Shown: positions 6,601 through 25,811 of the stretch, one piece after another
How the letters are laid out: each line of letters starts with the position of its first letter
Numbering within the stretch: position 1 is the stretch's first letter
Assembly: GCA_965215105.1 (NCBI GenBank)
Contig: OZ244051.1
Location: forward strand, 3,074,896 to 3,138,895
Direction: 5' to 3'
DNA from: Vicinamibacterales bacterium
Lineage (GTDB): Bacteria > Acidobacteriota > Vicinamibacteria > Vicinamibacterales > UBA8438
Length of the DNA stretch: 64,000 bases
Program-made: the position numbers and the translations under genes
The notes under the pieces: model-generated
Told to the model about the DNA's origin: nothing
The model's database searches: none
The model's input: only the letters and a program-made list of their open reading frames with translations

Positions 6601-6976
6601 CGGTTCGGGAGGCGATGCGTTCCCGTGGTTCTTCCGCGAGATGGACGCAGGCGTCCTCGTGGGCGAGCGCACGTGGGGCGGCCTCATCGGCCCCGCCTCG
6701 GGACATCAGCTCATAGACGGCGGCTTCTACACCGCGCCGCCCGGGCGGCTCTACCGAAACGACGGACGGTGGTTCGCGGAAGGTCACGGGGTCGAGCCGG
6801 ACATCGCGGTGGCGGATCACCCCGGCGAGCTGGCCAAGGGGAACGACCCGCAACTCGACGCCGCCGTCGCGGAGCTCATGCGCCGGATCCGGGAGAATCC
6901 TCCGGCCCTGCCCCCGCCGCCCGGTGACGAGCGCCGGGTCGTCACCGATTCCAACGGCGGGAACGAGGACCGTTAG
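3662..6976 (+). CDS. Tricorn protease homologue (S41-type, beta-propeller + PDZ + peptidase), secreted
   Basis: MRYFTATLTLLFSLGATLTWAQ signal peptide. MLRYPDVSETQIAFVYAGDIWVV is a tricorn N-terminal signature. Repeated SPDG propeller motifs and a C-terminal DERWNGGG peptidase region are present. The upstream part of the 3047 ORF is discarded. Confidence 0.85.
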   Translation: MRYFTATLTLLFSLGATLTWAQIDARMLRYPDVSETQIAFVYAGDIWVVTKEGGSARKLSSPPGEESFPRFSPDGAQIAFSGNYNGNNDIYVVPTLGGAPFRITHHPGDDRVLDWTPDGRGVLLASNRRSGLPSFRQIYRVAAEGGQPERLAVPYGEFGALSPDGRRIAYTPETRGFRTWKRYRGGAAPEIWLLDLETLDAENVSDSPANDAQPMWHGDTLYFLSDRGPAQRYNIWAHDLATGSKRQVTTFTDFDITFPAIGPSDLVFQAGGRLFRLDLATERVSAVEVDVVTDLAALVPRTADVANRIASAGISPTGQRAVFEARGEIFTVPARHGAVRNLTHSSGAADRFPAWSPDGRWIASWSDSGGEYELTLHRADGAGEPQVVTALGPGFRYRPFWAPDSTKLAFIDHTQRIYVFDRETGALTEVDRGLHMLHGALAGFELSWSHDSRWVAWSRGLETTNSAVFLFDTEAGERFQVTSGYYNDFRPVFDPAGKHLYYYSNRTLAPVYSDLDATWVYPNATNVVAATLRDDVPSPLAPRNDEEPVAEDDDEAEPGEEAAEEADDDGPGSDGEDDAATTPLDIDVDGFESRAVMLPVEAGNFGRLRAVDGKVVFHRRPHAGGAGDQPSPIVAYDLEEREEQTILPDGDSFEISADGKKLLVSNERSWAIVDVAPGQTLEDRLATNALTMTLDPPAEWRQMFDEVWRTYRDYFYDDDLHGLDWNGLRAQYGGLIDQAVTRWDVNFLIGELIGEVNASHTYVGGGDTETPRRRGVGLLGVDWSLENDAYRIARIVRGAPWDIEDRSPLDEPGVDVDKGDYLLAVNGNPLDPARDPYSAFEGLAGETVLLTVNDRPTVDDAREVVVTTLRSEATLRMRDWIEQNRLRVDDASGGRIGYVYVPNTGVPGQTELVRQFNHQHDKDGLIIDERWNGGGQLPDRFVELMNRETVGHIYFRHGATARHPTITHRGHKAMLINGQAGSGGDAFPWFFREMDAGVLVGERTWGGLIGPASGHQLIDGGFYTAPPGRLYRNDGRWFAEGHGVEPDIAVADHPGELAKGNDPQLDAAVAELMRRIRENPPALPPPPGDERRVVTDSNGGNEDR

Positions 6977-7398
6977 CTGAACGCGGGTCCATGTGCGCAG
7001 GCTGGGGCAGATCCACCTCGCGCCGGGAGTTCGGGTGTCGTTGATTGAGCAGGGATCGCCGGATCCCCCTTGGTCCCTGCCCGGCACGCGTGGATTTGTC
7101 TTGTCCGACCGCGCGGGTGCTCGACAGTACCCTTGCGCCCCTTGCGCCCTCCAAGGTCCCCGGCACGTTGACGTCAACGCACCTCTGCGCCGCCCCGGCG
7201 TGGCAATTCCTGCACCCGCCGGCCCCCGCCACCGGCTCGTCCCATGCAACTCGGGCCGTTCCGCGTTTGGCCCCGTTCTTGCTCCCTGAAGCACCTCGTC
7301 CACGGCCTGCCGGCCCCGGGTCGCCCCCGCGACCCTCCGAGCGCGCCGCACGCCCCGCACGTCTCGGGTGTGGACTCCGGACGTCGCCGGGAGCACGA

Positions 7399-8495
7399 AT
7401 GCAGGACGCCGCCTACAAGCTCTTGTTCTCGCGCCCGCGCATGGTCCACGACCTGCTCGACGGCTTCGCCGCCCGAAGCTGGAGCGGCGTCCTCGACTTC
7501 GAGTCGCTGGCCCCCCTGCCCGCCAGCTTCGTCGGCCGGGAGCTCCAGCAGCGCCACGGCGACCTCATCTGGCGCGTCCGCTTCCGCGACGACCGCTGGC
7601 TCTACCTGGTCCTGCTCCTCGAGTTCCAGTCCAGGAGTCTGTGCCGTGAAACGGCGCGGATTCCTGGAGGGTTGGTTGGGCGCCCAGCGGAGCCGCAGGC
7701 GACGATGGGCGGGCTACCGTCGACCCAGCGATGGCGGTGCGCATCCTGGAGTACACCGCGCTGCTCTACCGGCGGCTGGTCGACCACGACGTGCTCCGAG
7801 AACACGGGGCCCTGCCGCCGGTGCTGCCCGTCGTCCTCTACAACGGCCGGCGGCGGTGGACGGCGCCGGTCGAGGTGACGAACCTGCTGGCGGCGGGGAG
7901 CGAAGTGCTGGCGCCGTACCAGCCGTCGCAGCGATACTATGTTCTGGACGTGGCGCGCGTGGCGGACGCGGACCTGCCGGCGGGCAATCTGGTGTCTGCG
8001 CTCATCGGTCTGGAGAAGACGCGCGACGCGGCGGGCCTGCGCGAGGCGCTGAAGGTGCTGTCCGACCTTCTGCGGAAACAGAAGGACGACGCGTTGACGC
8101 GGGCATTCGTGACGTGGCTGCACCACGGGCTGCGGCATGCGGGCCGGCTGCCGGCGGACGGGGAGGACCCGTTGGCGCAGTTGCAGGAGACGCAGACGAT
8201 GCTGGAAGAGACCGTGCGGGAATGGACGCGTGAATGGCTCGAGCAGGGCCGCGCCCAGGGCATCGAGCAGGGCCGCATCCAGGGCATCGAGCAGGGCCGC
8301 CACGAAGAACGGGCGCTGCTCTGCCGTCTGGCGGCCCGGAAATTCGACGCCGGGGCCGTCGAGGGGCTGGCCGCCGCCCTGGCCGGCGTCACCGACCCGG
8401 ACCGCCTTGCGCGCGTCGGCGACTGGATCATCGAGTGCGCGACGGCGTCGGAGCTGCTGGCCCGCGTCCGCGGCGACAACGGGCCGGGCGGCTGA
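7399..8495 (+). pseudogene. Rpn/YhgA-like nuclease, copy 2, interrupted by an 83-bp insertion
   Basis: MQDAAYKLLFSRPRMVHDLL...LLLEFQS is followed by a frame break. The remainder (MAVRILEYTALLYRR... to GDNGPGG) is in the ORF 7731-8495. Confidence 0.8.
7633..7715 (+). other. 83-bp insertion of unknown origin inside rpn copy 2
   Basis: Absent from copy 1, which reads gagttccagtcc|accgtcgaacc. It contains the hairpin gccgtGAAacggc and the 10-bp palindrome tgggcgccca. Its length is not a multiple of 3. Confidence 0.8.
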
Positions 8496-8977
8496 GGCGC
8501 CGGCGGCGGGGACCCGGCGGCGGCGCGGCATCGGCGTCGAACGCGACCGGATCGCGCGTTTGAGCGCCCCGACATCTTCTCACCTCTCGACGCGCACCCC
8601 TGCCCGACCGTTCCCCCTTGCGGCTTCTCGGACGACAACACCGCGGAGCGAGCGTCGTGGCGCAGCTTCAACCCAACCGGGCCGCTTGACGTCGATCTCC
8701 AGACGGAGCAGCACACCTCGTCGGGCGTGCGGCCCGCTGCTGAACCACGTGCAAGCGTTGGCGTCTCCCGAGAACGCTGTACCCCCGTTCGTGACGACCT
8801 CGACAGCCGGGAACCCGCGCCCGGCGGTCGACGCATTCGTCGTCGCCAACGTCGCTACGGGAGTCTGACCCCGAACTTCGTCTATCATGACGCCCGCGAG
8901 GTCAAGCCGGCGCTCGCCGGGGGCCTTGCGAGGAAGGCGTCTGGCAGTCAGCGCCAACACCGCGGGATGAGGTGCCG

Positions 8978-9082
8978 CCGGGAACGTCATGACCGTTGAT
9001 TCCAAGTCCCGAAGGACCGCCGCCGCACCGGACTTCCACATCGCGCGGTGCTACCGGGAACGTCATGACCGTTGATTCCAAG
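8978..9082 (+). repeat. 29-bp direct repeat (8978-9006 and 9054-9082) duplicating the SNF2 gene start region
   Basis: ccgggaacgtcatgaccgttgattccaag occurs twice, 76 bp apart. Each copy carries an ATG. Confidence 0.9.
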
Positions 9083-12000
9083 GGGCGCGAGCTCTTCATC
9101 GTCGACAACAGCGTCTCCGGCTGGACCGGACTCCGGTACCTGGAGGAGTGGTGCGGCATCGCGAAGGCGTTCGACATCGCGACCGGGTACTTCGAGATCG
9201 GCGCCCTGCTCACCCTCGACGGCAGATGGCAGGGACTCGACAAGATCCGCATCCTGATGGGGGCGGAGACGACCCATCGGACCCGGAAGGCCATTCTCGC
9301 CGCCGTCCGGGCGCAAGCGCTCGACAGGCTCGACGAGAGCATCGAGGAGGACAAGCAGCCGAACCCCTTCCTGCACGGGGTCCCTGCGATCCTCGACGCC
9401 CTCCGCTCCGGGCAGATCGAGTGCCGGGTCTACGACAAGGACAAGTTCCACGCCAAGGCCTACATCACCCACGCCAAGCTCGAGGTAGTGGGCGCCCAGG
9501 CGCTGGTGGGATCCAGCAACTTCACGCCGCCGGGTCTGACGAAGAACGTCGAACTGAACGTCCAGATCCAGAGCGCGCGCGAGGTCGCGCAGCTCCAGGA
9601 GTGGTTCGAGACGCACTGGCACGAAGCGAGCGACGTCACCGAGGCCGTCATCGAGGCGGTCTCGCGCCATACGCACCTGTACTCGCCGTTCGACGTCTGC
9701 GCGAAGGCCCTGCAGCAGTTCTTCCGGGGGCACGAGCTGACCGCGACCGAGTGGGACGAGAGACGGTCGCGCATGTTCCCGCACCTCGACCGCTATCAGA
9801 GGGAGGCGTACTGGGCGCTCATGAAGATCGCCCGGCAGCATCTCGGCGCGTTCCTCTGCGACGGCGTGGGCCTCGGCAAGACGTTCGTCGGTCTGATGCT
9901 GATCGAGCGGCTCGTCCTCCACGAAGGCAAGCGTGTCGCGCTGTTCGCACCGAAGGCAGCCAAGGAGGGAGTATGGGAGCCCCACCTGCGTCAGTGGCTC
10001 CCGCACATCGGCGGCGTCGGCGGTGGCGCGGACTTCAGCAATCTGGCCGTGTTCAGCCACACCGACCTCGGACGAAGGGGGGACTTCCCGGCGCGTTTCC
10101 GACGCATTGCGGAACTCGCCGACGTCGTCGTCATCGACGAGGCGCACCACTTCCGCAACCCCGGCCGCCGGGAGGACCCCGAAAAGGGAATCGAACCGTC
10201 GCGCTACTACCGCCTGTTCGATCTGCTCGACAACGCGGAACGCCCCAAGACCGTGTTCATGCTGACGGCCACGCCCATCAACAACCGCCTGAGCGACTTC
10301 CGCCACATGACCGAGCTCTTCACCCGTCGCGACGAGGCCTACTTCGCGCGCACGATCGGCGTGAACAACCTGCGGGCCCACTTCAACCAGATGGAGAAGA
10401 CACTTCGCAGCCGTGTCGGGCAGGACGCGGCGGACGCCGCGGAGCACATGACCGACGCTCAGGAGATCCTCCTGACCGACGAGATCTTCCGCCAGCTCGT
10501 CGTCCAGCGGAGCCGCGCGTACGCCCGCGAAAGCCAGATTCGCGAGCACGGCAAAGCGACGGCCTTCCCCGAGCGGAAGGACCCCCAGGTGGCGGCGTAC
10601 TCGATCCGCAAGACCTACGGACGGATACTCGACCTGTTCGAGAGGGCCTTCGCGAAGCAGAACCCGCTCTTCGCACTCCCGATGTACTACCCCCTGCATT
10701 GGTACCGGGGCCCGGACAAGAACATCGACGCGTTCGAGGAGAACCGCCAGAAACAGGTGGTCGGCCTCATCCGGACCAACTTTCTCAAGCGCTTCGAGAG
10801 CTCCGTCGCCGCCTTCGAGCTCTCCTGCGACCGCCTGCTCCGGAAGCTGCTCGCCTTCGTCGAGGTCCACAGCGAGAGCGCCGCCGAGAAGAAGCGCCTC
10901 GAGAGGTGGAAAGCACAGAATGCCGAGGTCCTGGGCTACGCCGTCCAGCGCCAGCTCGATCTCTGGGGCGAGGACGACACAGAGGGGGACGACGAAGACA
11001 TCGTTCCCCAGGAGATGCTCGAAGCCGTCGTGCGCCTCGACCGGGCCGAGTACGACGTCGAGGAGATGATGTCCGAGACCTTCCTCGACCTCGACCAGAT
11101 CGCGCAGTTCCTCGACGAGGCGCGGAAGTTCGAGCCGAAGCACGACGACAAGCTCCGGAAGCTCATCCGCCTTCTCAAGTCGAAGACGCTGGCCGACCGG
11201 AAGATCCTGATCTTCACCGAGTTCGCCGACACCGCCCGCTACCTCAAGCGTCACCTGGACTCGGCCGGTATCGAGGGCGTCGAGCAGGTGGACAGCGCCA
11301 CGAAGAAGAACCGTGCAGACGTCATCCAGCGCTTCGCGCCCTACTACAACGGCCTCTCCTCCCCGGAGCTCGCCGAGCACGGCCGCGAGGAGATCCGCGT
11401 CCTGATCTCCACGGACGTCCTCTCCGAGGGTCTCAACCTCCAGGACGCCTCGCGGATGATCAACTACGACATCCACTGGAACCCCGTGCGCCTCATGCAG
11501 CGCATCGGCCGGGTGGACCGGCGCATGAACCCCGAGATCGAGAAGCGGCTCGTCGCCGACCGTCCCGACGCGGCCGCCTCGCGCGGCAAGGTCTGGTTCT
11601 GGAACTTCCTTCCGCCCGAAGAGCTGAACGACATCCTCTCGCTCTACACGCGGGTCACGCAGAAGACGCTGCTGATCTCCGAAACGCTCGGCATCGAGGG
11701 CAAGAAGCTCCTCACTCCCGAGGACGACTTCAAGGCGCTGAAGGAGTTCAATCACGCCTACGAGGGCACGCGCACGGCCGTGGAGGACATGCACCTCGAG
11801 TACCAGGCGCTGCTCCAGGCCGACCCGGAGCTGGAGGCGCGCCTTGCCCGCTTCCCCGGCGCGATCTTCAGCGGCCGCGAGCGCGTGGTGAAGGGCGTGC
11901 GCGGTGTCTTCCTCTGCTACGCGCTCCCCGCCCTCGACAAGGAGAAGAACGAGTTCACCGAGGAGGCCGGCACCACCCGCTGGTACCTCTACGACCTCGA

Positions 12001-12214
12001 CCGCGCTACCATCCTCGACGAACCGGGCGAGATCGTCGCGAGCATCCGCTCGAAGCCCGAGACGCCCCGACGCTGCGCCATGGAAGAGCAGACGCTCCTC
12101 GACGTCCGCAAGCGGATCGAAAAGCACGTCAAGAACAGCTACCTGAAGCGCGTGGATGCCCCGGTCGGCGTCAAGCCGCGACTGCGCTGCTGGATGGAGC
12201 TGAACGAGAGCTGA
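9065..12214 (+). CDS. PLD(HKD) nuclease - SNF2 family helicase fusion
   Basis: FHAKAYITH...GSSNFT is an HKD motif. The SNF2 motifs DGVGLGKT, VVIDEAHHFRN, LTATPINN and NYDIHWNPVRLMQRIGRVDR are present. ATG at 9065 is preferred to the upstream TTG at 8996. Confidence 0.85.
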   Translation: MTVDSKGRELFIVDNSVSGWTGLRYLEEWCGIAKAFDIATGYFEIGALLTLDGRWQGLDKIRILMGAETTHRTRKAILAAVRAQALDRLDESIEEDKQPNPFLHGVPAILDALRSGQIECRVYDKDKFHAKAYITHAKLEVVGAQALVGSSNFTPPGLTKNVELNVQIQSAREVAQLQEWFETHWHEASDVTEAVIEAVSRHTHLYSPFDVCAKALQQFFRGHELTATEWDERRSRMFPHLDRYQREAYWALMKIARQHLGAFLCDGVGLGKTFVGLMLIERLVLHEGKRVALFAPKAAKEGVWEPHLRQWLPHIGGVGGGADFSNLAVFSHTDLGRRGDFPARFRRIAELADVVVIDEAHHFRNPGRREDPEKGIEPSRYYRLFDLLDNAERPKTVFMLTATPINNRLSDFRHMTELFTRRDEAYFARTIGVNNLRAHFNQMEKTLRSRVGQDAADAAEHMTDAQEILLTDEIFRQLVVQRSRAYARESQIREHGKATAFPERKDPQVAAYSIRKTYGRILDLFERAFAKQNPLFALPMYYPLHWYRGPDKNIDAFEENRQKQVVGLIRTNFLKRFESSVAAFELSCDRLLRKLLAFVEVHSESAAEKKRLERWKAQNAEVLGYAVQRQLDLWGEDDTEGDDEDIVPQEMLEAVVRLDRAEYDVEEMMSETFLDLDQIAQFLDEARKFEPKHDDKLRKLIRLLKSKTLADRKILIFTEFADTARYLKRHLDSAGIEGVEQVDSATKKNRADVIQRFAPYYNGLSSPELAEHGREEIRVLISTDVLSEGLNLQDASRMINYDIHWNPVRLMQRIGRVDRRMNPEIEKRLVADRPDAAASRGKVWFWNFLPPEELNDILSLYTRVTQKTLLISETLGIEGKKLLTPEDDFKALKEFNHAYEGTRTAVEDMHLEYQALLQADPELEARLARFPGAIFSGRERVVKGVRGVFLCYALPALDKEKNEFTEEAGTTRWYLYDLDRATILDEPGEIVASIRSKPETPRRCAMEEQTLLDVRKRIEKHVKNSYLKRVDAPVGVKPRLRCWMELNES

Positions 12215-12218
12215 GCCG

Positions 12219-13271
12219 ATGCCGACCGACCACCGCGAACGCCTCGCCGGCATCCGCCGCTTCGATCAACTCGTCGCCTACCTGCGCGACGAGCTCGGCT
12301 GGCCGATCGACTCGGACGACTTCGAGGAAGCGACCTTCGAGTACACGCCGGACGAGCTCGGGATCGACGCGAAGAACGCGGCCAAGATCCAGGAGATCAA
12401 GCGCCTGCGACCCCTCGCACCGGGCCAGCCCTGGGGCATCTTCTTCGTGAAGTTCGAACCGAAGCGCCTGCCCGTGGTGGCGCTGCGCCGCATCCTCGGA
12501 CGGGTGGCGCTCAAGAAGCGCGGCTCCGCCAACCCGTCCGAGCGCCAGGCCTGGGCCGCCGACGACCTGCTGTTCGTGTCGAACTACGGTGAGGGCGACC
12601 AACGGCGGATCGCCTTCGCCCACTTCTCGAAGCCGCGCGACGGCCACGACCTGCCGGCCCTGAAGGTGCTCGGCTGGGACAACCTCGACACGCCGCTCCA
12701 CCTCGACGCCGTAGCCAGCGAGCTGCGGGACCACCTCACTTGGCCCGACGACGAGAGCGACCCCGACGCCTGGCGCGACCACTGGCGCGCCGCGTTCACG
12801 CTGCGCCACCGCGAGGTCATCACCACGTCGAAGCAGCTCTCCGCGCGCCTGGCCGTGCTGGCGCGCGCCATCCGCGACCGCACCCGGACCGCGCTGGCCA
12901 TCGAGACCGAGACCGGCCCCCTCACGAAGCTCATGAACGCGTTCCGGACCGCGCTCGTCCACGACCTCGACGAGGCCGGCTTCGCCGACATGTACGCCCA
13001 GACCATCGCCTACGGCCTGCTCTCGGCCCGCATCACCGACCCCGGCCGGCGCACCGCCGACGACTTCGCCGCCCACCTGCGGACGAACCCCTTTCTCCGG
13101 GAGCTGATGGAGACCTTCCTCCATGTGGGCGGCCGCCGCCGCCCGGCCGGCGGACCCGGCATCGACTTCGACGAGCTGGGCGCCTCGGACGTCGTGGAGC
13201 TCCTCGACCGGGCCAACATGGAGGCCGTCGTCCGCGACTTCGGCGACCGGAACCCCCAGGAAGACCCGGTG
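12219..13271 (+). pseudogene. N-terminal remnant of a type ISP/IIG (PglX/DrmMI-class) N6-adenine DNA methyltransferase; catalytic domain deleted
   Basis: FADMYAQTIAYGLLSARI ... [12 protein letters not shown] ... RNPQEDPV matches the pre-catalytic helical region of this class. The sequence breaks exactly where the IHFYE.../NPPY domain should start. The frame changes at 13272-13275. Confidence 0.65.
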
Positions 13272-13275
13272 CGTG

Positions 13276-14019
13276 TCCGAGGAGGTCTGGGGCTTCCACA
13301 TCGGCGGCTATCAAGTTTGCCACAAATGGCTCAAGGACCGGAAGGGTCGCACGCTCTCGGACGAGGACGTCGTCCAATACCAGAAGATCGTCGTCGCCCT
13401 GAACGAGACCATCCGGATCATGACCGAGATCGATGAAATCATCGAAGCCCACGGCGGCTGGCCCGACGCGTTCCGGGCGGGTGCGCAGGCGGGTGCGCCA
13501 TCGCACGGGACCGCGGAGGTGCTCCCGTTCCGGCCGCGGACGGTCCAGCCCGCGCCGGAGGACCGCTACGTCACCTGCGTGCCCCTCGTCCCACTCAAGG
13601 CCGCCGCCGGCGCCTTCAGCGACCCGCAACACATCGACGATGACGACGTCGAGTGGGTATCCTTGGAGTCCGGCCGTCGCCTGCGCAAGGGTATGTTCGT
13701 CGCCCAGGTCGTCGGCAGGTCCATGGCGCCCGCGGTCCCCGACGGCGCCTGGTGCCTCTTCCGGGCGCCCGTCGAGGGTACGCGCCAAGGCAAGACCGTC
13801 CTCGTCCAGCTCCGCGACGCCGCCGACCCCGAGACCGGACAGCGCTACACCGTCAAGCGCTACGAGAGCCAAAAGGCGAAGGGGGCAACTTCTTGGCATC
13901 ACCAGAAGATCGTCCTCGAGCCCGTCAACCCGGACTTCGAGTCGATCGTGCTCACCGGCGCGGACGAAGACGAGCTGCGGGTGGTCGCAGAACTGGTCGA
14001 GGTGCTTGGAGGCCGATGA
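13276..14019 (+). CDS. Type ISP/IIG C-terminal motif fused to a LexA-like S24 peptidase domain
   Basis: [50 protein letters not shown] is the conserved C-terminal end of the class. It is followed by [13 protein letters not shown] (LexA-like cleavage-site region), [11 protein letters not shown] (Ser at 13720-13722) and YTVKRY (Lys). Internal ATGs near 13420 could give a standalone S24 protein. Confidence 0.6.
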
Positions 14020-17000
14020 GTGGCTCCGGAGCAGCTCGAACCGCGTCTGGAGCTGCTCCGCGAGGAGTACGTCCTCGTTCAGGCGTGGAAGAAGACCGCA
14101 TCCTACATCCGCTACCACAACTGGTTTTCCGACACGCTGGCCCTCGACCGAGCGGCCGTGAACCTGCCAACGTTTCTCGGCGAACTGCGCGAGCGTCTGC
14201 AGGCTCCGGAGACTTGGCGGAACGATCCGTTGCGCATCGTTCCGGCGCCGAAGAGGCAGCACTGGAGAGTGCGGGAAGGTGCGTGGGAGCCCGTCAAGGG
14301 AGCGCCCTCGGCGCGGCTTCGACCGCTCGCCCACGTCAGCTTGGAGGAGCAGGTGGTGGCGACGGCACTGATGCTCTGTCTCGCCGACCGGGTCGAGACT
14401 CGGCAGGGGGATCCGTGGCGGTCGGTACGTGATCCGGAATCGCGAAGGCAGGTGGTTTCCTACGGAAATCGGCTGTTCTGCGACGCCGTCGGTAGCGAAC
14501 TACGCCATCGGTGGGGATCGTCCAAGCTCTACCGAGCCTACTACCAGGACTACCGTACGTTCCTCTCCCGGCCGGAAATCGCGGCCGAGGCGGTACCGGC
14601 AGCGGAGGAAAAGCGTGTCTACGTCGTCCATGCGGATCTTCGGCAGTTCTACGACCGCGTCCGCCCGGATCTGCTTTCCGCAGCCATCGGCCGCGTTCGC
14701 CGCGACGGAGATAATGCCGGATTCTTCTCTCTGGCGGCGTCGGTGCTCGATTGGCGCTGGGATCCGCGTGATGGAAGAGACGTCCGGATCTACGCAGGGC
14801 AGGCGGAGCTGGAGGACTTCACGCGGGTGGCGTTGCCGCAGGGGCTCGTCAGCGCGGGCTTCTTCGCCAACGTCGCGCTCCTTTCGTTCGACGAAGCGCT
14901 GCGCGCGGCGATCGGGACCGAGATCGCTTTCGGGATCCGCTTGGTGGATTCGTGCCGGTACGTCGACGACTTGCGGATCCTCGTTGCCGTTGACCGGAAC
15001 TCCGCCACCTCGTCGGACGACCTTGAGACCGCCGTCTCCAGCGTCTCCAGATGGCTGAGCAGGGTGCTGCAAGAGCATGCGCCCGGTCTCGCGCTGTCCC
15101 CCGAGAAGACCCAGGCCGCAGCGCTTGGAGGCGACGAACGGCCGCTGGTGCGACAGAGCGCGAAGATGAACCGCATCCAGTCGGCGGTGTCGGGGGGATT
15201 CGACGCGCTCGGGGGCGAGGAGATCCTCGACGCCATCCAGGGGCTGATGCGCGCTCAGGAAGCACTCAGCGTCGGCGACGACAGCGGCTGGCGATTTTCG
15301 CCGGTTCCAGACGTCCGCAACGAGACGGTCGCCAGATTCGGCGCTGCCCGATATCGAACCACGTTCCGTTCCATCAGGCCGCTGCTCCAGGACGATGACA
15401 CGCCGGACGAGTCTGAGGTTGGAAGAGCCGATACCGCGGCTGGCGGGCGACTGCGGGTAGCGCGCACGCGGCGGGAGCTGGACGAGGATGCGAGGGCGTT
15501 TGCGCTGGGTCTGATTCAGCGGTGGATCGACGATCCGTCGAACGTCCGCCTGCTTCGGATCGGCCTGGATCTCTGGCCGGACGTGAAGCTGTTGCAGGAA
15601 GTCCTCTCATTGCTTCGTCCGTTCACGGAAACGGGGGGCCGTCGCAACGCCCCGAGGCGCGTCGCTTGGTACTGCCTCGCTGAAGTCCTGCGCGCAGGAG
15701 CCACGGAGACGGGCCTCGTGGCGGACACCGAATCGCTCCCAGCGGGGGTCGACGTGGGTCGCTACCGGGAGGAGCTCCGTAAGGAGGCCAGTCGCCTGGC
15801 GACGTTGCCCTGGCCGACCATTCCCTGGTACCTCCGACAGCAGGCACTGCTGTTCCTTGCCGCGTTCGATCCCGCCGGGGCGCCGGTCGTGCGCACGGGA
15901 AGAGCGCCGGAGACCAAGCACTACCGGGAGCTCATCCTATTCCTGCGCGGTGGACTGCACCCGCGACCGGCCTCGGAATTCGCCACTTTCGCGATCCTGG
16001 CTAGGCGCGCGTTCGTGGGTCGAGCACGCGCCGTCGAGCTGACGCGCCCGGCTCTCAATCCCTCGGAGAAGCGGCAGATCGCCCGGAGGGACCCGAGTTT
16101 CCTTCTCGAACTCATCCACGCGGAGACGCAGGGTCTACTCTTCGACGATCTTCCGGCGCGCGTGCGCGAGGATCTGTGCAGGATTACTGATAGTTCGGGC
16201 GGAGACTCTGGCACCTTGGCCGACGCGGTCCTGCGCTCTCATCCGACCGGCTCACTCCGCAACGAGCTCTCCCTTCTCCGCTTCGGGAGGGCTTTTCTCG
16301 AACAGTGGCGGCAGCAGGAGTCTCCGTCCGAGGTGATCACGCCAGGGCAGGTCAAGCTCAACGTCGCCGAGGACCACGGGGTCCCAGACGTAGAAGGCCT
16401 ACGGATAACGGGGAGTCTGGCCGACCCATCGGGGTCCCTGTACGAAGTGCCCGCATGGTGTGAAGCCGGCGAGCGGTGGCGCTTCCAGCTCGGATTCTTG
16501 CTGCGGTTCATCCTGTCGGGGCAGCCGGATTTCACGCGTCCGGTACGCCGGGCGAGTTGGAGAGAGACCGAATTGGCCTATCGTCCTGCCGAGAACCACT
16601 GGTACCAGCGGCTGTACGGCCTGTACAACGGGCAGCCGGCCTTCGGAGACGACTGGCTTCCGATCACGGACTGGACGGAAGGATTCCTCCTCGCCCTCCT
16701 GCGCTGGCCGCGGTGCCGTGCTTCCGAGGGGTTCCGTTGGGTCGAACAGGGCATCGAAGAGGCGAGGACGCAGATTGGCCGGAGGATCGCCGCCCTCGAG
16801 AAACGTCGCGGCAGCGCTACCTGCGCGTTGATCCTGCCGCTGCCGGCCAAGCGACCGACCGCCACGAACGCGAATCGACCGTTACGCGCCTGCGTGGTCC
16901 AGGCGGCCGTTCCGGCGGCCGACGACTTTCGGCACACCGACCTGGCGCTCAACGAGTCCGCAATTCGGCGAAGACACCGCAATCACCTGTCGGCGGCCCT

Positions 17001-17757
17001 CGCAGCCGTGGAACGCATGCTGGCCCTGCGGGAGACGCACAAGGAAAGCGAAGGGCGGCTCGATTGGCTGATTCTACCCGAGCTTGCCGTCCATCCGAAT
17101 GACGTTCGTACTCATCTGGTTCCTTTCGCACGGGCTCACAGGGCGCTGATCCTCACCGGGCTGACCTATGAGGAGGTTCTGGTGGGGCAACCGCTGGTCA
17201 ACTCAGCTCTGTGGATCATTCCGGAGTGGTCGGACGCCTACGGGCTGCAGATCAGGACTCGCCGTCAGGGGAAGGCGCATCTCGCCCCGAATGAGCAGGC
17301 GTTCAACGGAGCTGGCGCCCGTATCCTGCAGGGCTTTCGGCCCTGCCAGTGGTTGATCGGCTATCCGTGGTCTGACGCGGAGGATGCCCAGCCTGCCTGG
17401 CTGACGGCGGCCGTCTGCTATGACGCGACGGATCTTGGTCTTGCTGCGGATCTCAGGGATGAGTCGGATATACTGGCGATCCCGGCGCTCAACCAAGACG
17501 TCAAGACGTTCGACCAGATGGCCCTGGCGTTGCACTACCACATGTTCCAGCTCGTGGTCGTCGCCAACAACGGGCAGTACGGCGGGAGCAACGCCTATTG
17601 GCCGAGGAAAGATGTTGTTGTCAGGCAGGTCTTCCATACCCATGGACAGCCGCAGGCCTCGATCTCGTTCCTCGAAATCGATGACATCGGCGCATTTCTG
17701 GAGCGCCACGACGGAGCCGACTGGAAGCATCCGCCTGCAGGTCTGAACCGTCGCTGA
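14020..17757 (+). CDS. Reverse transcriptase - nitrilase (C-N hydrolase) fusion, DRT1/UG1-like
   Basis: RT motifs: RLRPLAHVSLEEQVVATALMLCL, VVHADLRQFYDRV, LPQGLVSAGFFANVAL, YVDD (14959-14970) and LSPEKT. Nitrilase triad context: LILPELAV, QGKAHLAP and AAVCYDATD (Cys at 17416-17418). The GTG start directly abuts the upstream TGA (14017-14019). Confidence 0.85.
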   Translation: MAPEQLEPRLELLREEYVLVQAWKKTASYIRYHNWFSDTLALDRAAVNLPTFLGELRERLQAPETWRNDPLRIVPAPKRQHWRVREGAWEPVKGAPSARLRPLAHVSLEEQVVATALMLCLADRVETRQGDPWRSVRDPESRRQVVSYGNRLFCDAVGSELRHRWGSSKLYRAYYQDYRTFLSRPEIAAEAVPAAEEKRVYVVHADLRQFYDRVRPDLLSAAIGRVRRDGDNAGFFSLAASVLDWRWDPRDGRDVRIYAGQAELEDFTRVALPQGLVSAGFFANVALLSFDEALRAAIGTEIAFGIRLVDSCRYVDDLRILVAVDRNSATSSDDLETAVSSVSRWLSRVLQEHAPGLALSPEKTQAAALGGDERPLVRQSAKMNRIQSAVSGGFDALGGEEILDAIQGLMRAQEALSVGDDSGWRFSPVPDVRNETVARFGAARYRTTFRSIRPLLQDDDTPDESEVGRADTAAGGRLRVARTRRELDEDARAFALGLIQRWIDDPSNVRLLRIGLDLWPDVKLLQEVLSLLRPFTETGGRRNAPRRVAWYCLAEVLRAGATETGLVADTESLPAGVDVGRYREELRKEASRLATLPWPTIPWYLRQQALLFLAAFDPAGAPVVRTGRAPETKHYRELILFLRGGLHPRPASEFATFAILARRAFVGRARAVELTRPALNPSEKRQIARRDPSFLLELIHAETQGLLFDDLPARVREDLCRITDSSGGDSGTLADAVLRSHPTGSLRNELSLLRFGRAFLEQWRQQESPSEVITPGQVKLNVAEDHGVPDVEGLRITGSLADPSGSLYEVPAWCEAGERWRFQLGFLLRFILSGQPDFTRPVRRASWRETELAYRPAENHWYQRLYGLYNGQPAFGDDWLPITDWTEGFLLALLRWPRCRASEGFRWVEQGIEEARTQIGRRIAALEKRRGSATCALILPLPAKRPTATNANRPLRACVVQAAVPAADDFRHTDLALNESAIRRRHRNHLSAALAAVERMLALRETHKESEGRLDWLILPELAVHPNDVRTHLVPFARAHRALILTGLTYEEVLVGQPLVNSALWIIPEWSDAYGLQIRTRRQGKAHLAPNEQAFNGAGARILQGFRPCQWLIGYPWSDAEDAQPAWLTAAVCYDATDLGLAADLRDESDILAIPALNQDVKTFDQMALALHYHMFQLVVVANNGQYGGSNAYWPRKDVVVRQVFHTHGQPQASISFLEIDDIGAFLERHDGADWKHPPAGLNRR

Positions 17758-17840
17758 TTGCCCTTGAGGGTCAAGAATGCCACTGTTTTCCACAGCAGGG
17801 GCGTCGCGGGTCTGAACATGAGATCATCGGGAGGTTCGTC

Positions 17841-20800
17841 GTGACAACCTTCGCCGCTGGCGCGCGCCGCTTGCCGCTCCACCACGTCACCATCCGCGTC
17901 CCCTGGCACGACGGGGGCTGGACCGGGAAGGTGTGCGCCCGACCGCTGGACAACTCGAGCTGCCTGATCCTGCCCCGCATCGGCGAGGGCCGGCGCGACG
18001 ACGTGGAGACGCGTTGCGCGGGCCGGCGGCTCGACGAGCTCGACCGCGCCGACCTGCCACCCTGCGTGAGCGAGCGCGTCTCGTTCATGGCGCCCTTCGC
18101 GTTCCCGCGGACGATGACGCACCCTTACACGGAGTTCTACCCCGAGACCTACGGGCACTTCGCACCCACCCCCTTCGTGCAGCCGGCGTACTCCGCTGCC
18201 TGCGTGCCCTTCCGATGGGTGCTGCGCGAGAAGGTCGAGGGGAGCCCCAAGGACGACGAGATCGGGATCGCCGATCGTCTGAAGATCGGCTGGTTGCCCG
18301 AGCGCGAGCCCGAGATCCACAATCACCGGGGCCATCAGGTCGATACCGCCTGGGTCCAGGAGCGCGGGAACCAGCTCGCGCTGCTCGACACCTTCTTCGG
18401 CGCGCTCCGACCCCAGGAGTCGCTCTGCTTCTTCTATGCCAAGCGCACCCCGCTCTCCGAACAGTCCCGACGCGTGATCGTCGGCGTGGGCCGCGTGCTT
18501 TCCGTGGGCGACGCCACGGAGTACGCATACAAGGTCGAGAACCCGCCGCTCCAATGCGTGCTCTGGGAGCGCAACGTTGGCCACTCCGTCCGACCCGGCT
18601 TCGCGGACGGCTTCCTCTTCCCCTACCGGGAGGCGTTGGAGCTCGCCGACCGCGAGAGGGTCGACCCCGAAGAGTTCGTGGCCTTCGCTCCCGACGAGCA
18701 CTTCGACGCCTACTCCTACGGCTCGGAGCTCCTGACCCACGATGGCGCCGTGGCGTCCCTCGTGGCCTGCGCGGCGGCGCTGCACCGGATCCGCGACCGG
18801 ATAGAGGGACCGTGGGACGAGGCGCTCGCCTGGATCGACACGCAGCTCAACCGCCTGTGGAAGGCGCGCGGCGCGTTCCCCGGCCTCGGCTCGGCGCTCT
18901 CCGCGTTCGGCTACGAGTGGGGCTTCCAGCACGGGAGCCTGCTCGCCTACGAGATCGAACTGCTGCGAGAACGAGACGGCGGCGACCCGTGGGTGCTCGT
19001 GGAAGCCGTGATGGATGCACCCGGGAAGCTCGGCGGCCCCGTGGCGAAGCTCCTCACCGACGGTCTGTGCAGGGGCTGGAAGCGCCTCGCCGACGAGCGG
19101 CGGGCCCTGCTCCAGCTCCTCGGCCGTTGCGCCGTCTCGGAGGATCAGGCGCTGCGCTTCTACGACACTACGGCACGGGCGGAGGCCGGCATCGAGGCCT
19201 GCGACGCCGAGTTGCTGCGCAATCCGTACCTCATATTCGAACGCGACCGGCGCGCCGCCGACCCCATCGCCTTCGGCGCGGTGGACCGGGGCCTGTTCCC
19301 GGATGAGGCGGTGCGGGAGCAGTTCCCCGTGCCGAAGCCGAGTTTCATCGAAGACCCGGCCGACGAACGGCGGGTGCGCGCACGCGTCGTGGACCTCCTG
19401 GAACACGCGGCGGGCGAAGGCCACACGCTGCTTCCCAGGAGCTGGGTCATCCGCAGGGCGCGGGAGCACGCGCTCCAGCCGCCGTGCCCGCTCGGCGAGA
19501 ACGTGCTCGACGCCTGCGAGGAGAGCTTCGATCCGGTGATCGCGCGCGTCGCGACGCGCGCGGGCGAGCCCGCCTACCAGGTGGCGCGGCTCGTAGAGTG
19601 CCGCAAGATCATCCGCCGCGAGGTGCTCGGTCGGAAGAGGGGAAAGCCGCACGCGGCCGATCACGAGTGGCGTGGGCTGGTAGACGCGGGGCTCGATGAG
19701 CCGCTGCCCGCGTATCCCGAAGAGCGCGAGCTGGAGAAGCGTGCGCGGCGCGAGAAAGCTACCGCGCTCGAGCAGCTCTTCCGCTCGCGGCTCTCCGTGC
19801 TGATCGGGCCGGCGGGGACGGGCAAGACGACGCTGCTACGGATGCTCTGCTCGCTTCCCGGCCTCGCCGAGAGAGGGCTGATACTCCTCGCCCCCACGGG
19901 CAAGGCCCGCGTGCGACTGGAAGAACAGACCCGCATGCGAGGCGCCGGCCAGACGCTGGCGCAGTTTCTGATCCGGCGGCAGCGCTACGACGGGAAGACC
20001 GGCGCCTACTTTCCCAAGCCCAGGGCGCCTCGCTGCGGTGACTACCGGACCGTGATCGTGGACGAGTGCTCGATGCTCACCGAAGAGCAGCTCGCCGCGC
20101 TGATCGACTCGCTCAGCAACGTCGAGCGGCTCGTGCTCGTCGGCGATCCGCGCCAGCTTCCGCCGATCGGGGCCGGCCGTCCGTTCGTGGACATCGTTCG
20201 AGGGCTCGAGCCGGAGAACGTCGAGTTGGTCTTTCCGCGCTGCGGGCCGGGCTATGCCGAGCTCACGATCTCGCGACGCCACCAGGGCGAGGCCCGGGCC
20301 GACGTGCTCCTGGCATCGCACTTCAGTGGACGGCCGCTCGATCCTGCCGCAGACGCCGTGCTGGACGAGGGCGAGGAAAGAACGGACGGACGACTGCGGC
20401 TCGTGCGCTGGAACCACCCGGAGGAGCTTCAGGAGAAGCTCGTTGCCGAGCTGGTCCAGACCCTCGGGCTCGCCGGACCGGACGACGAACTGGGCTTCGA
20501 GGAATCGCTGGGCGGCGCGCGCCGCGGGGACAACCCGTGGGCCTTCTTCTTCAACCGGTTCGGCGACAACTCGGGAGCCGCCGCGCAGGCGGAAACCTGG
20601 CAGATGCTCTCGCCCCGGCGCGCCGGGCTCGTTGGGGTGGATGCACTGAACCGCACCCTCCAGACCCGGTTCCGGGTGAAGGTTCGCGAGCTCGCCGAGA
20701 CGGAGGGGTGGGGCCGCAAGGTGCCGCGGCCCTTCGGCCCGCAGACGCTCCTCTACGGCGACAAGGTCATCAACGTCATCAACCAGCGCCGGCGCGACGT

Positions 20801-21662
20801 CTGGCCGAAGCCGGCGGACGAGGCCTACCTCGCCAACGGAGACATCGGCATCGTCGTCGGGCAATACAAGTACCAGAAGAGCAAGTTCAGGGGCCTGCCG
20901 CGGAAGCTCGAGGTCGAGTTCGCGGGGCAACTGGGCCCCAAGTACGGGTTCCACCCCGGCGAGTTCGGAGACGAAGGGCGCAACCCGCTCGAGCGGGCCT
21001 ACTGCCTGACGGTGCACAAGACCCAGGGCAGCGAGTTCGGCGTCACCTTCGTCGTGCTCACCAACCCGTGCTGGCTGCTCTCACGCGAGCTCCTGTACAC
21101 GGCGCTGACCCGCCACAAGGACCGGCTGGTCATCCTGCACGAGGGCCCGCTCGTCGAGTATCGCCGCTATGCGGGCAACCAGCACTCGGAGATCGCCCGC
21201 CGCATGACGAACCTCTTTGCGGATCCGTTGCCGCGCGAAGTAGCCGTCGACGCCCGGCAACGCTTCCTCGAGGCAGGGCTCATTCATCGAACCGAGCGCG
21301 GTGACCTCGTGCGCTCGAAGTCGGAGCTGGTCATTGCCGACAAGCTTCACGCCCGCGGGATCGAGTACGCCTACGAGCAGCCTCTCGTCCTGCCCAACGG
21401 TCGCACGCGTTACCCGGACTTCACGATCGCGGATCACGCGCGGGGCGTGACCTTCCACTGGGAGCATCTCGGCATGGTCGACGACCCGGGGTACAGAGCC
21501 CGATGGGAGAGGAAGCGTGCCGAGTACCTGGAGTGCGGAATCGAGCCTCACGAGAACGGCGGGGGCCCGGACGGCACGCTGATCGAGACCCGCGACGAGC
21601 CGGGCGGGGGGCTGGACGCAGCGGCGATCGCGTCGGTGATTGACGAAGTGATTCTGGGTTGA
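17841..21662 (+). CDS. SF1 (RecD/AAA_30-like) helicase with a large unassigned N-terminal region and a C-terminal PD-(D/E)xK (Vsr/DUF559-like) nuclease motif
   Basis: GPAGTGKTT, VIVDECSM, VLVGDPRQLPPIGAG, TVHKTQGSEF and LYTALTRHKDRLVIL are helicase motifs. The C-terminus reads RSKSELVIADKLHARGIEYAYEQPL...YPDFTI...FHWEHLG. GGGAGG lies 6 nt before the GTG at 17841. Confidence 0.8.
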   Translation: MTTFAAGARRLPLHHVTIRVPWHDGGWTGKVCARPLDNSSCLILPRIGEGRRDDVETRCAGRRLDELDRADLPPCVSERVSFMAPFAFPRTMTHPYTEFYPETYGHFAPTPFVQPAYSAACVPFRWVLREKVEGSPKDDEIGIADRLKIGWLPEREPEIHNHRGHQVDTAWVQERGNQLALLDTFFGALRPQESLCFFYAKRTPLSEQSRRVIVGVGRVLSVGDATEYAYKVENPPLQCVLWERNVGHSVRPGFADGFLFPYREALELADRERVDPEEFVAFAPDEHFDAYSYGSELLTHDGAVASLVACAAALHRIRDRIEGPWDEALAWIDTQLNRLWKARGAFPGLGSALSAFGYEWGFQHGSLLAYEIELLRERDGGDPWVLVEAVMDAPGKLGGPVAKLLTDGLCRGWKRLADERRALLQLLGRCAVSEDQALRFYDTTARAEAGIEACDAELLRNPYLIFERDRRAADPIAFGAVDRGLFPDEAVREQFPVPKPSFIEDPADERRVRARVVDLLEHAAGEGHTLLPRSWVIRRAREHALQPPCPLGENVLDACEESFDPVIARVATRAGEPAYQVARLVECRKIIRREVLGRKRGKPHAADHEWRGLVDAGLDEPLPAYPEERELEKRARREKATALEQLFRSRLSVLIGPAGTGKTTLLRMLCSLPGLAERGLILLAPTGKARVRLEEQTRMRGAGQTLAQFLIRRQRYDGKTGAYFPKPRAPRCGDYRTVIVDECSMLTEEQLAALIDSLSNVERLVLVGDPRQLPPIGAGRPFVDIVRGLEPENVELVFPRCGPGYAELTISRRHQGEARADVLLASHFSGRPLDPAADAVLDEGEERTDGRLRLVRWNHPEELQEKLVAELVQTLGLAGPDDELGFEESLGGARRGDNPWAFFFNRFGDNSGAAAQAETWQMLSPRRAGLVGVDALNRTLQTRFRVKVRELAETEGWGRKVPRPFGPQTLLYGDKVINVINQRRRDVWPKPADEAYLANGDIGIVVGQYKYQKSKFRGLPRKLEVEFAGQLGPKYGFHPGEFGDEGRNPLERAYCLTVHKTQGSEFGVTFVVLTNPCWLLSRELLYTALTRHKDRLVILHEGPLVEYRRYAGNQHSEIARRMTNLFADPLPREVAVDARQRFLEAGLIHRTERGDLVRSKSELVIADKLHARGIEYAYEQPLVLPNGRTRYPDFTIADHARGVTFHWEHLGMVDDPGYRARWERKRAEYLECGIEPHENGGGPDGTLIETRDEPGGGLDAAAIASVIDEVILG

Positions 21663-21791
21663 CGCTCCTGCGAACTTCGACGGCGACTCCCAAACGCGGC
21701 CAACTGTGAGGGGCAGTGGACCGATCGGGTGTCGAAGAGCCGAGTCGAGGCGCCGGAGCGATTGACGCGGCGCGAAGTACGGAGGGCACGC

Positions 21792-22052
21792 ATGCGAGAG
21801 CGAAGCATCGGGATTCAGGAACTCCACGCGAACCTGGGTAGGTGCCTGGATGAGGTCCGGCGCGGCACGACTCTTTTCCTGACGGATGGCAAGCATCGGG
21901 TGGCTCGCCTCATCCCGGAGCCCGACGCGGCCGTCTCGGGGGGCGGACTTCCCATCGCCTGGAGCGGGCGCCGGCTGAAGAAGACCAAGCCGAGGGCCCG
22001 CCTGCGCGGTGGGGGCAGCATGGCCGACATCGTCAGGGAGAACCGCCGGTGA
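21792..22052 (+). CDS. Phd/YefM-type antitoxin
   Basis: MRERSIGIQELHANLGRCLDEVRRGTTLFLTDGKHRVARLIP. GGAGGG RBS is present. A 4-nt GTGA overlap joins it to the PIN gene. Confidence 0.75.
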   Translation: MRERSIGIQELHANLGRCLDEVRRGTTLFLTDGKHRVARLIPEPDAAVSGGGLPIAWSGRRLKKTKPRARLRGGGSMADIVRENRR

Positions 22053-22489
22053 CGCTGCTCTACCTGGACACGAGCGCGCTGTTCAAGCGCTACGTCGAGG
22101 AGGCCGAGTCGGAGGCGCTGCTCGGCCGGATCGAAGACGCCCCGGCGGTGGGCACGGCCTTGATCACGCGGGTCGAGGTGGCGGCCGCGCTGGCGAAGGC
22201 GGTGCGTGATGATCGCATGCCGTCCTCGGAAGCGCGCGAGGCCGAGAGCGATTTCCTCGACGACTGGGCCGACTTCACGAGAATCGGATTGACGGACGAT
22301 GTGGCGGCGCGCGCTGGCCGCCTCGCGTGGAAGCACGACCTGCGAGGCTACGACGCCGCGCAGTTGGCGGCCGCGCTCGCATGGCGCGAGGCCACCGAAG
22401 ACGCGGAGGACCAGGTCGTGTTCGCCTGCTTCGACAACGATCTGCGCCGGGCGGCTGCGGCGGAGGGCCTCGAGACGTGGCCGGCATGA
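22049..22489 (+). CDS. vapC: PIN-domain ribonuclease toxin VapC
   Basis: LLYLDTSALFKRYVEE carries the N-terminal acidic residue. RGYDAAQLAAAL and VFACFDNDL are typical PIN motifs. Confidence 0.8.
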   Translation: MTLLYLDTSALFKRYVEEAESEALLGRIEDAPAVGTALITRVEVAAALAKAVRDDRMPSSEAREAESDFLDDWADFTRIGLTDDVAARAGRLAWKHDLRGYDAAQLAAALAWREATEDAEDQVVFACFDNDLRRAAAAEGLETWPA

Positions 22490-23689: not shown

Positions 23690-23882
23690 TGGTCCCTCCC
23701 TGGTGCCGCCCCGTGGTCGATCGCGGCTCCGCGACCCGGAGCCCGAGACGTCCTCCACCGATCGGATCAGACCATTGAACGGTTCCCGGTCCCGCGCTCC
23801 TCACTCCGCGAGGCGCCGTCCCGATGATAGCCCGTCCGACAGTTTGCTCTGCGCGTCGGCGGCGTCGAGCGGCGCCGCGCGA

Positions 23883-24605: not shown

Positions 24606-24728
24606 GGGACCAGCGCGCCAGGCGCCTCCCGCGCGTGGGCGCGGCCTGCTCGCCGCCGTCCTCACTGCGGACCGAGAGCACGAATCCCGGCTGGAAGGCG
24701 CCAACGGGAACGGGCGAGGATCGAGACC

Positions 24729-25616: not shown

Positions 25617-25811
25617 CGCCAGGCGATATCGGGACTCTCGCCGGCCCGCCGAACGAGAGCCGGCGCGCTCCCGCCGCCGCAGCCTGTCCAGATCGAGATG
25701 GCGGCTTGCGGGTGTCGCCGCACCACCCATTGCGGATTGCCGTGCAGGCTCCTAGCTAGAATGGACTTCCGACCCCGGTCGGAAACCGCGTTCGCACCGA
25801 GGAGGCCCCGG

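Follow-up and report, generated by a model that had tools for sequence, protein, structure and literature searches.

A recurrent defence gene cassette with a broken restriction gene, a DRT1 reverse transcriptase, and a PDC-S68 helicase in a Vicinamibacterales genome

Genes of the block

A 64,000-nucleotide stretch of a Vicinamibacterales bacterium genome (contig OZ244051.1, positions 3,074,896 to 3,138,895; hereafter "the window") carries a 12.6-kb block of four large reading frames, A, B, C, and D, all on the + strand at 9065-21662. They encode a PLD nuclease fused to an SNF2-type ATPase (A), the remnant of a methyltransferase and specificity gene that ends in an S24 peptidase module (B), a DRT1 reverse transcriptase (C), and a helicase of the PDC-S68 family (D). 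The TGA of A (12212-12214) is separated by a 4-nt gap (GCCG) from the ATG of B at 12219, and the TGA of B (14017-14019) abuts the GTG of C at 14020, which has a GGAGG 8 nt before it. Between the stop of C (17755-17757) and the GTG of D at 17841 lies an 83-nt gap that contains a GGGAGG (17829-17834). The codirectional frames and junction spacings reported in a first-pass annotation of this DNA are exact in the sequence, and its domain calls (PLD and SNF2 in A, Type_ISP_C and S24 in B, reverse transcriptase and nitrilase in C, SF1 helicase in D) are upheld by Pfam and PADLOC matches. The genome has a GC content of about 70% and is rich in long shadow open reading frames (ORFs). Among the ORFs of the block, only the A to D frames passed a test of GC content at third codon positions (GC3), and all of them give strong full-length family matches. 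Long ORFs on the opposite strand, such as 8987-12253, fail the same test and were discarded as GC-rich shadows.

Homology to other phyla, as detected by blastn, begins 18 nt before A and stops 3 nt past D, which delimits a shared cassette at 9047-21665 on the + strand. Window positions 9047-13270 have 90.8% nucleotide identity to locus L001 (loci from our surveys carry L numbers), positions 17805-21665 have 88.7% identity to L002, and the cassette DNA is ~90% identical between the window genome and metagenome-assembled genomes (MAGs) of Binatia or Acidobacteriota. The GC content is 0.673 within the cassette and 0.704 and 0.714 in its flanks. The block is probably transcribed as one unit. A promoter and terminator scan was neutral on this point, with no sigma-70-like sites found and with fewer terminator-like sites than in shuffled sequences. 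At the left edge of the cassette, an exact 29-bp direct repeat (CCGGGAACGTCATGACCGTTGATTCCAAG) occupies 8978-9006 and 9054-9082. It places a second copy of the sequence next to the ribosome site, together with the first six codons of A, 76 nt ahead of the true start codon, and it is the upstream copy that is collinear with other genomes (L001 and L082). The repeat resembles the scar of a small insertion or duplication.

Gene A (9065-12214, + strand; 1,049 aa) is intact and encodes an SNF2-type ATPase that carries a fused PLD (HKD) nuclease domain (Pfam PLDc_2, ResIII, and Helicase_C). Its HKD motifs (HAKAY and GSSNF) are intact, as are GLGKT and DEAHH. The best PADLOC match is to the uncharacterised C3a139 "HKD+Snf2" model (1e-58), and matches to the DrmD and phospholipD_antiphage models fall far under the NCBIfam cut-offs. 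Full-length identity is 89-90% to the homologues at L001, L002, L016, and L082, and the 90%-identity cluster that contains A has 414 members. A may contribute the motor and the nuclease to a Type ISP-like restriction module that is split over two genes.

Gene B had been described from the sequence as a methyltransferase remnant in a single ORF (12219-14019). The remnant stands, but the single ORF does not: GC3 indicates that B codes in frame 0 to ~13260 and in frame +1 beyond, so that two frames of one gene are joined where 2,117 nt have been lost. The 5' part (12219-13270, + strand) corresponds to a Type ISP/IIG-like methyltransferase over its first ~350 aa, with 87% identity to residues 1-348 of intact homologues and a weak match to PADLOC REase_MTase_IIG; beyond this part, the frame is no longer in register and meets a stop codon at 13434-13436. 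The 3' part (13271-14019, + strand, frame +1) encodes the last ~55 residues of Type_ISP_C (profile positions 290-341 of 342 only) and the S24 module (Pfam Peptidase_S24, 1.4e-6). In the source annotation, this region appears as a 199-aa S24 protein starting at 13420. Comparison by blastn with L001, L002, L005, and L016, along with the junction sequences, places the deletion junction at 13268-13270. The missing 2,117 nt correspond to L001 7132-9248, and in DNA alignments to the cassette in other genomes the gap is bordered by window segments 9047-13270 and 13268-17713. A microhomology-mediated deletion at a shared CCGGT was considered and rejected, as it does not match the junction exactly.

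Intact homologues of B are ~1,305 aa long and consist of an N-terminal region, an N6_Mtase/Eco57I domain, a complete Type_ISP_C domain, and a C-terminal Peptidase_S24 domain (L005:6080-9997). An intact homologue matches REase_MTase_IIG, the PADLOC model for Type IIG restriction-modification (RM), at 2.5e-161. In the window, the deletion leaves nothing of the N6-methyltransferase domain and very little of the specificity domain, and it also causes a frameshift; Pfam finds no N6-adenine methyltransferase domain in the window copy, whereas one is present in the intact gene of L005. Because the catalytic and specificity domains of B are deleted, modification and targeted restriction are almost certainly dead in the window, and the same almost certainly holds for A-B as a restriction anchor. 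Genes A, C, and D are full length and are likely functional on their own. An independent internal deletion of B is found at L084, and the S24 end is again spared.

The S24 module is LexA-like, with KAAAG at 13597-13611, the serine of GRSMAP at 13714-13731, and the lysine of TVKRY at 13849-13863. The two residues of the Ser-Lys dyad (in GxSM and TVKR) are invariant in an alignment of S24 carriers, as are the AAA positions of KAAAG. The pattern (K/R)AAA(G/S), a candidate Ala-Gly-type site by pattern match, is conserved ~40 residues before the serine, where LexA has its site. A profile search with the module returned 2,269 proteins. A survey was made of 80 metagenome loci centred on the module; the locus lists used in this study comprise the best 80 of 148 and the best 80 of at least 520, so that the frequencies are rough. 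The carrier was a Type I HsdR subunit at 38 of the 80 loci, a B-type methyltransferase at 21, a helicase-MZB (DUF1998) protein at 4, a canonical single-chain Type ISP enzyme at 1, and unclassified at 16. Modules 64-80% identical to that of the window end HsdR, a 1,835-aa single-chain Type ISP enzyme (L095:4988-10495), and helicase-MZB proteins of ~2,000 aa; other loci with such fusions are L118:6947-10492, L159:4475-10492, and L175:6453-10004. C and/or D lies downstream at only 7 of the 80 S24-centred loci, with DRT1 at 3 of those 7, and some B genes have no S24 module at all (L008, L032, L167, and L172). These carrier counts and the S24-less B genes indicate that S24 belongs to translocating restriction proteins and is not a reverse transcriptase partner. 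On the basis of the survey, a role of S24 as a dedicated partner of DRT1 was rejected. No description of S24 fused to restriction translocases was found in the literature searched. The possibility that a 202-aa ORF between B and D at L172 and L177 is a split-off S24 module was rejected (hhalign probability 0.1).

Gene C (14020-17757, + strand; 1,245 aa) is an intact DRT1, also called UG1, a class 3 UG/Abi enzyme that joins a reverse transcriptase to a nitrilase. It matches PADLOC Drt1a (PDLC03745) at 1,233.8 bits, with residues 4-1242 on profile positions 4-1176 of 1176, and PDB 9yfd_A, "Defense-associated reverse transcriptase 1," at an E value of 1.2e-122 (residues 5-1244 versus 10-1227). 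Pfam detects RVT_1, and PADLOC RTasNitrilase matches residues 804-1243 (4.7e-59); the Pfam search gave no CN_hydrolase match on C. The YVDD motif lies at 14959-14970, where CRYVDDLR aligns with CRYVDDIR of the solved enzyme (D324/D325), and Y314 to D317 are invariant in the DRT1 alignment. Candidate nitrilase residues E1021, K1085, and C1133 (17074-17091, 17266-17283, and 17410-17427) are also invariant, and the C terminus is conserved; C1133 would be the counterpart of C1116 in the studied DRT1. The priming serine of that enzyme, S402, aligns with G393 of C in a locally gapped part of the alignment, with the invariant S391 (QSAVSGGF) two residues away. GC3 is 0.78 in C versus 0.87-0.92 in the adjoining genes.

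These full-length matches agree with the earlier assignment of C to the single-gene DRT1/UG1 class, and the solved homologue does act as a single gene (PMC13275509). DRT1 alone protects Escherichia coli by means of protein-primed, template-free synthesis of single-stranded DNA (ssDNA), dormant filaments, and a nitrilase effector (PMC13275509). Its activation requires a phage Dda-type SF1B helicase, which is necessary but not sufficient (PMC13275509). The only reported DRT1 neighbour is the small membrane protein Drt1b, found in ~18% of cases (PMC13275509; PMC9226505), and no drt1b lies beside C in the window.

Gene D (17841-21662, + strand; 1,273 aa) is intact and belongs to the PDC-S68 family, matching PADLOC PDLC05065 at 1,506.7 bits over residues 12-1271; Pfam AAA_30, UvrD_C_2, and SH3_13 are also detected. 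Its core is a RecD2/Dda-like SF1B helicase (NCBIfam RecD2 TIGR01448, 3e-56; PDB matches to RecD2, RecD, and T4 Dda), with the Walker A motif GTGKT at 19815-19829 and the Walker B motif VDECSM at 20058-20075. Motifs in the last ~130 residues (YPDF...WEHLG, 21411-21473) suggest a putative PD-(D/E)xK-type nuclease. The first ~620 residues have no family match, and an AlphaFold2 model of the N-terminal 645 aa, built from a 24-sequence alignment, was unusable (pLDDT 45.8, pTM 0.33). No mention of PDC-S68 was found in the literature searched. The D proteins form two subtypes with 48% identity between them. Plasmids of Rhizobium and Vibrio carry distant homologues (31-52% identity) as solitary genes, and a Bacillus cereus homologue stands alone ~1 kb upstream of a DISARM operon. 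A rearranged locus (L017:4820-17453) has, upstream of DRT1 and on the opposite strand, a homologue of D with 33% identity; a methyltransferase of the B type that lacks S24 lies downstream of DRT1, STAND/NACHT-like ATPases are close by, and A is absent.

Recurrence and separability of the array

A survey of DRT1 loci (80 loci, one genome per species, 10-kb flanks) shows that the array is not peculiar to the window. The full A-B-C-D set is found in the same order and on the same strand, with minimal spacing, at six of the 80 loci, and these come from five phyla or classes: Acidobacteriota (L002), Alphaproteobacteria (L005), Gammaproteobacteria (L008), Woeseiaceae (L018), Nitrospira (L028), and Acidobacteriia (L032). 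Across the arrays, identity ranges over 58-90% for A, 57-85% for C, and 48-94% for D. Gaps at A/B and B/C are 0-4 nt or are replaced by overlaps (4 nt at B/C in some), and those at C/D are ~10-120 nt. The same order and tight gaps in distant phyla indicate that the adjacency is not due to chance. The four genes are conserved neighbours, and, just as the first-pass annotation knew of no described system of this kind, no description of the cross-phylum arrangement was found in the literature searched. Clustering of flanking ORFs reveals A, B, and D as the sole recurrent neighbour families of DRT1, present at 8, 11, and 11 of the 80 loci, respectively, and all three are absent from ~80% of the loci. 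In certain otherwise intact cassettes, a DUF1016/YhcG PD-(D/E)xK nuclease gene is found between A and B (L028:4927-6057 and L090:5436-6587).

The array also comes apart. A-B-C is followed by a stub of D at L001 and L016, intact C-D occurs without A-B at L003, L021, and L072, an A stub and a split C precede D at L074, and A-B-D occurs without C at L089, L090, L167, L172, and L177. Loci of the D family add further arrangements: a truncated C and then D (L164-166); A-B, a 697-aa protein, and D (L167-171); A-B, a 202-aa protein, and D on replicons with Rep/Par/TrwC genes (L172-173 and L177-179); A-B interrupted by an insertion sequence (IS), then S24, C, and D (L174); and HsdM-HsdS-x-HsdR(S24)-D (L175).

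The gene directly after A-B varies as well. This slot is occupied by Gabija GajA/GajB at L105 and L112, a CBASS-type cyclase at L146, a PDC-S37/Hhe-like helicase-nuclease at L114, and a PDC-M33A-like gene at L099, and in some genomes A-B is alone or has no recognisable gene after it. The S24-HsdR loci have a comparable variable slot between hsdS and hsdR. DRT1 itself is found behind a DISARM/Dpd-like set at L033 (DpdE/DrmD-like, DrmMI-like, and helicase-MZB genes) and behind a helicase-MZB-S24 protein at L050. The variety of genes found after A-B suggests that DRT1 and D are two of several alternative tenants behind restriction-type operons. Alleles are shuffled within the array; for example, L032 and L087 share D at 94% identity and C at only 59%. 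Decay by IS insertion or deletion has frequently and independently affected B, C, or D (L002, L016, L081, L082, L084, L104, L164-166, and L174). TrwC relaxases, Rep/Par genes, or integrases adjoin the cassette at L082, L172, L174, and L177, and IS elements lie near it elsewhere.

These data bear on the view, put forward in the first-pass annotation, that the block is a single integrated system of four interdependent components. Such a system would fit the conserved order, the translational coupling of the genes in at least eight loci from several phyla, the abutment or 4-nt overlap of B and C, and the lack of any description in the searched literature. However, every sub-combination occurs (AB, ABD, ABC, CD, C alone, and D alone), unrelated known systems occupy the slot after A-B, and the components decay independently. 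Furthermore, S24 is missing from the four B genes listed above and is mostly carried by HsdR, and DRT1 is autonomous in experiment (PMC13275509). Each gene also corresponds, for the most part, to a separately described standalone unit, C being DRT1, D the single-gene candidate PDC-S68, and intact B a match to the PADLOC Type IIG RM model. Since B is broken in the window, a four-part machine could not be working here. Overall, the integrated system is very improbable.

Interpretation of the cassette

Our favoured reading, to which we give a probability of roughly 0.6 from comparison of sequences and gene neighbourhoods, treats the block as a mini defence island, anchored by restriction genes and moved horizontally, whose three separable modules travel together. 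Mobility is suggested by the lower GC content of the cassette, the ~90% DNA identity across phyla, and the relaxases and integrases nearby. The first module would be a split Type ISP-like RM system, with B supplying the methyltransferase and target recognition and A supplying the SNF2 motor and PLD nuclease. The second, by homology, would be a DRT1 that makes protein-primed, template-free ssDNA adducts and dormant filaments and whose nitrilase kills the infected cell, and the third would be a 5'-3' helicase of the RecD/Dda kind whose tail may be a nuclease. Different autonomous second-line systems would occupy a cargo slot behind A-B, at the 3' end of the operon, and DRT1 and D would be the cargo here. 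Defence would then be layered, with restriction first and abortive infection second. Cleavage of S24 may be triggered by RecA* and, by analogy with LexA and with the ClpXP-dependent alleviation of restriction (PMC12707154), may expose a ...AA-COOH degron of the ClpXP type, so that restriction would be turned off after DNA damage. LexA cleavage fragments have a degron at the exposed end.

Several points weigh against this reading. The frequencies drawn from the best-80 lists are rough, the loci also being related by descent, and many of the loci come from MAGs with possible indel errors. An old, tight array whose order is kept over deep divergence fits selection for co-function, beyond a one-off hitch-hike. 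Close families of D (74-91% identity) lie directly behind a restriction gene or DRT1 in all six that were sampled and are never alone. Where DRT1 is at least 74% identical to that of the window, D or a stub of D is directly downstream at 13 of 18 loci. Finally, the phage Dda-type SF1B helicase needed for DRT1 activation belongs to the helicase family of D, which makes a link between D and DRT1 plausible.

The last two points are central to the most attractive rival, in which C and D are a functional pair and A-B is an unrelated anchor. D would act on the ssDNA adducts that lock DRT1 filaments and thereby trigger or tune DRT1, or it would free DRT1 from phage-encoded Dda. The matches of the D core to RecD2, RecD, and T4 Dda are in keeping with such a role, as are the three C-D loci without A-B and the retention of gene order despite shuffled alleles. 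The DRT1-D association is clade-specific: D is present at only 4 of the 62 other DRT1 loci (57-70% identity), and no locus below 57% identity among the 80 has D or a trace of S24. Against the pair, D is missing from ~80% of DRT1 loci, among them the one whose activity was shown by experiment (PMC13275509), and stubs of D beside intact C (L001, L010, L016, and L025) show that C is kept without it. D is also found directly after A-B or HsdR without DRT1 (L089, L090, L167, L172, L175, and L177), and its distant relatives are solitary. On balance, we consider a dedicated C-D pair unlikely.

The loci at which D follows a restriction gene raise another explanation, namely, that D assists ATP-dependent translocating restriction enzymes, by guarding against anti-restriction or by processing the DNA ends that restriction generates, and that DRT1 is an occasional insert between the restriction genes and D. 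D lies right after B or HsdR-S24, or overlaps its stop, at L085, L089, L090, L167-173, L175, and L177-179, and the slot from B to D is variable, being empty or holding 202 aa, 697 aa, or DRT1. The three loci with C-D and no restriction gene are difficult to reconcile with this role, as are the distant D homologues that are solitary or loosely near DISARM and the fact that PADLOC models D as a single-gene candidate. An accessory role of this kind is decidedly unlikely.

A more elaborate proposal is that the cassette is a wired two-layer immune unit in which the S24 switch ends restriction and the downstream genes then take over. RecA*-ssDNA would trigger S24 on split Type ISP, HsdR, single-chain Type ISP, and helicase-MZB proteins alike, exposing a degron after DNA damage or restriction failure. 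D would then strip the ssDNA adducts that hold DRT1 filaments dormant, and the nitrilase would fire. If true, DRT1 would have an endogenous trigger, and restriction failure would be linked to abortive infection. We regard this wiring as quite improbable.

Known systems and surroundings of the cassette

As a mobile, restriction-anchored island, the cassette can be compared with several known systems. C aligns end to end with the studied DRT1 (PDB 9yfd; PMC13275509) and keeps its YVDD motif, the nitrilase Glu/Lys/Cys candidates, and the C terminus. It differs in context: DRT1 of the window's subclade is habitually found behind an S24-ended restriction gene and before PDC-S68, an association of which there is no mention in PMC13275509 or PMC9226505. 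The intact form of B, like Type ISP (LlaGI/LlaBIII type) and Type IIG enzymes, combines N6_Mtase/Eco57I with a Type_ISP_C specificity domain, and A supplies an ATPase motor and nuclease like the N-terminal half of a Type ISP enzyme. Unlike Type ISP enzymes, A-B is split over two polypeptides even in intact relatives, uses a PLD nuclease where those enzymes have Mrr and an SNF2 motor where they have the ISP motor and coupler, and ends in a predicted S24 autoprotease. In the window, B has also lost the methyltransferase and most of the specificity domain. A true single-chain Type ISP enzyme with S24 is found at L095. The SNF2 helicase and the PLD nuclease, along with a large N6-adenine methyltransferase, are features shared with class 1 DISARM (DrmA, DrmB, DrmC, DrmD, and DrmMI). 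Membership in DISARM was rejected, as A to D contain no DrmA/DrmB (DUF1998/MZB) core and the score of A on DISARM_DrmD, 132.6 bits, is far short of the 610 cut-off.

Abortive-infection genes that lie within restriction loci have precedents in EcoprrI-PrrC and in the variable genes between hsdS and hsdR, and in the former the restriction enzyme holds the PrrC effector latent. The cassette resembles these loci as an ATP-dependent restriction operon with varied second-line genes in a fixed slot, here after A-B. With the S24 autoproteases LexA, UmuD, and lambda CI, the module of B shares the Ser-Lys dyad, and a short distance before it lies a candidate Ala-Gly-type site (KAAA|G). What sets B apart from those proteins and from EcoKI is that protease module and restriction protein form a single chain. 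In Type I enzymes such as EcoKI, ClpXP-dependent proteolysis is known to relieve restriction once DNA has been damaged (PMC12707154). PADLOC models PDC-S68 as a single-gene candidate, whereas the close families sampled here are all attached to a restriction operon or DRT1.

Each part of the cassette belongs to a known or catalogued kind. What appears to be new is the cross-phylum array, the S24-tagged restriction translocases, and the linkage of DRT1 to PDC-S68. Annotation tools would list an "S24 peptidase," an isolated HKD-SNF2 gene, DRT1, and PDC-S68 as separate items at this locus, which is actually one recurrent cassette with a broken restriction anchor. For DRT1 biology, a subclade habitually paired with a host Dda/RecD-like helicase-nuclease offers a ready-made test system. 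A LexA-like module on the C terminus of Type I, Type ISP, and related translocases suggests a built-in, damage-responsive switch for restriction alleviation. With respect to the evolution of defence islands, the 3' end of a restriction operon may be an exchangeable slot for abortive-infection systems.

The Rpn-like repeats and toxin-antitoxin neighbours reported in the first-pass annotation are real, being copies of Pfam Transposase_31 and a Phd/PIN pair. Repeat and Pfam searches place the first Rpn/YhgA copy at ~1700-3460 and the left copy nearest to the cassette at 6171-8637 (+ strand). A right, partial copy at 23790-24615 (+ strand) is 76-95% identical to the left ones. The first two copies extend into the 3' end of a tricorn-protease-like gene, and this indicates a segmental duplication; the second and third enclose the cassette together with the toxin-antitoxin pair and a cyclase gene. 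The pair, a Phd/YefM-like antitoxin and a PIN toxin (21729-22489, + strand; Pfam), lies directly downstream of D. It is outside the conserved cassette because homology to other loci stops at 21665.

Other features of the window lie farther to the right. A single ORF at 24729-25616, just right of the third Rpn repeat, fuses an MNT-like nucleotidyltransferase to a HEPN domain. Downstream of an unannotated 519-aa ORF (25698-27257), intergenic-looking sequence contains a 69-bp tandem unit (93% identical) at 27273-27410 and, nearby, a pair of 42-bp repeats 77 nt apart at 28293-28411. An ORF at 50012-51505, which adjoins a low-GC dip at 49-50 kb, fuses a PTP-SAK ("Swiss Army Knife" dual-specificity phosphatase) domain to an ADP-ribosylglycohydrolase. 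An IS transposase (DUF4372 and DDE_Tnp_1) is encoded on the - strand at 61165-62364 in a low-GC stretch (0.625), and an IS with the same pair of domains also interrupts DRT1 in the decayed cassette at L081.

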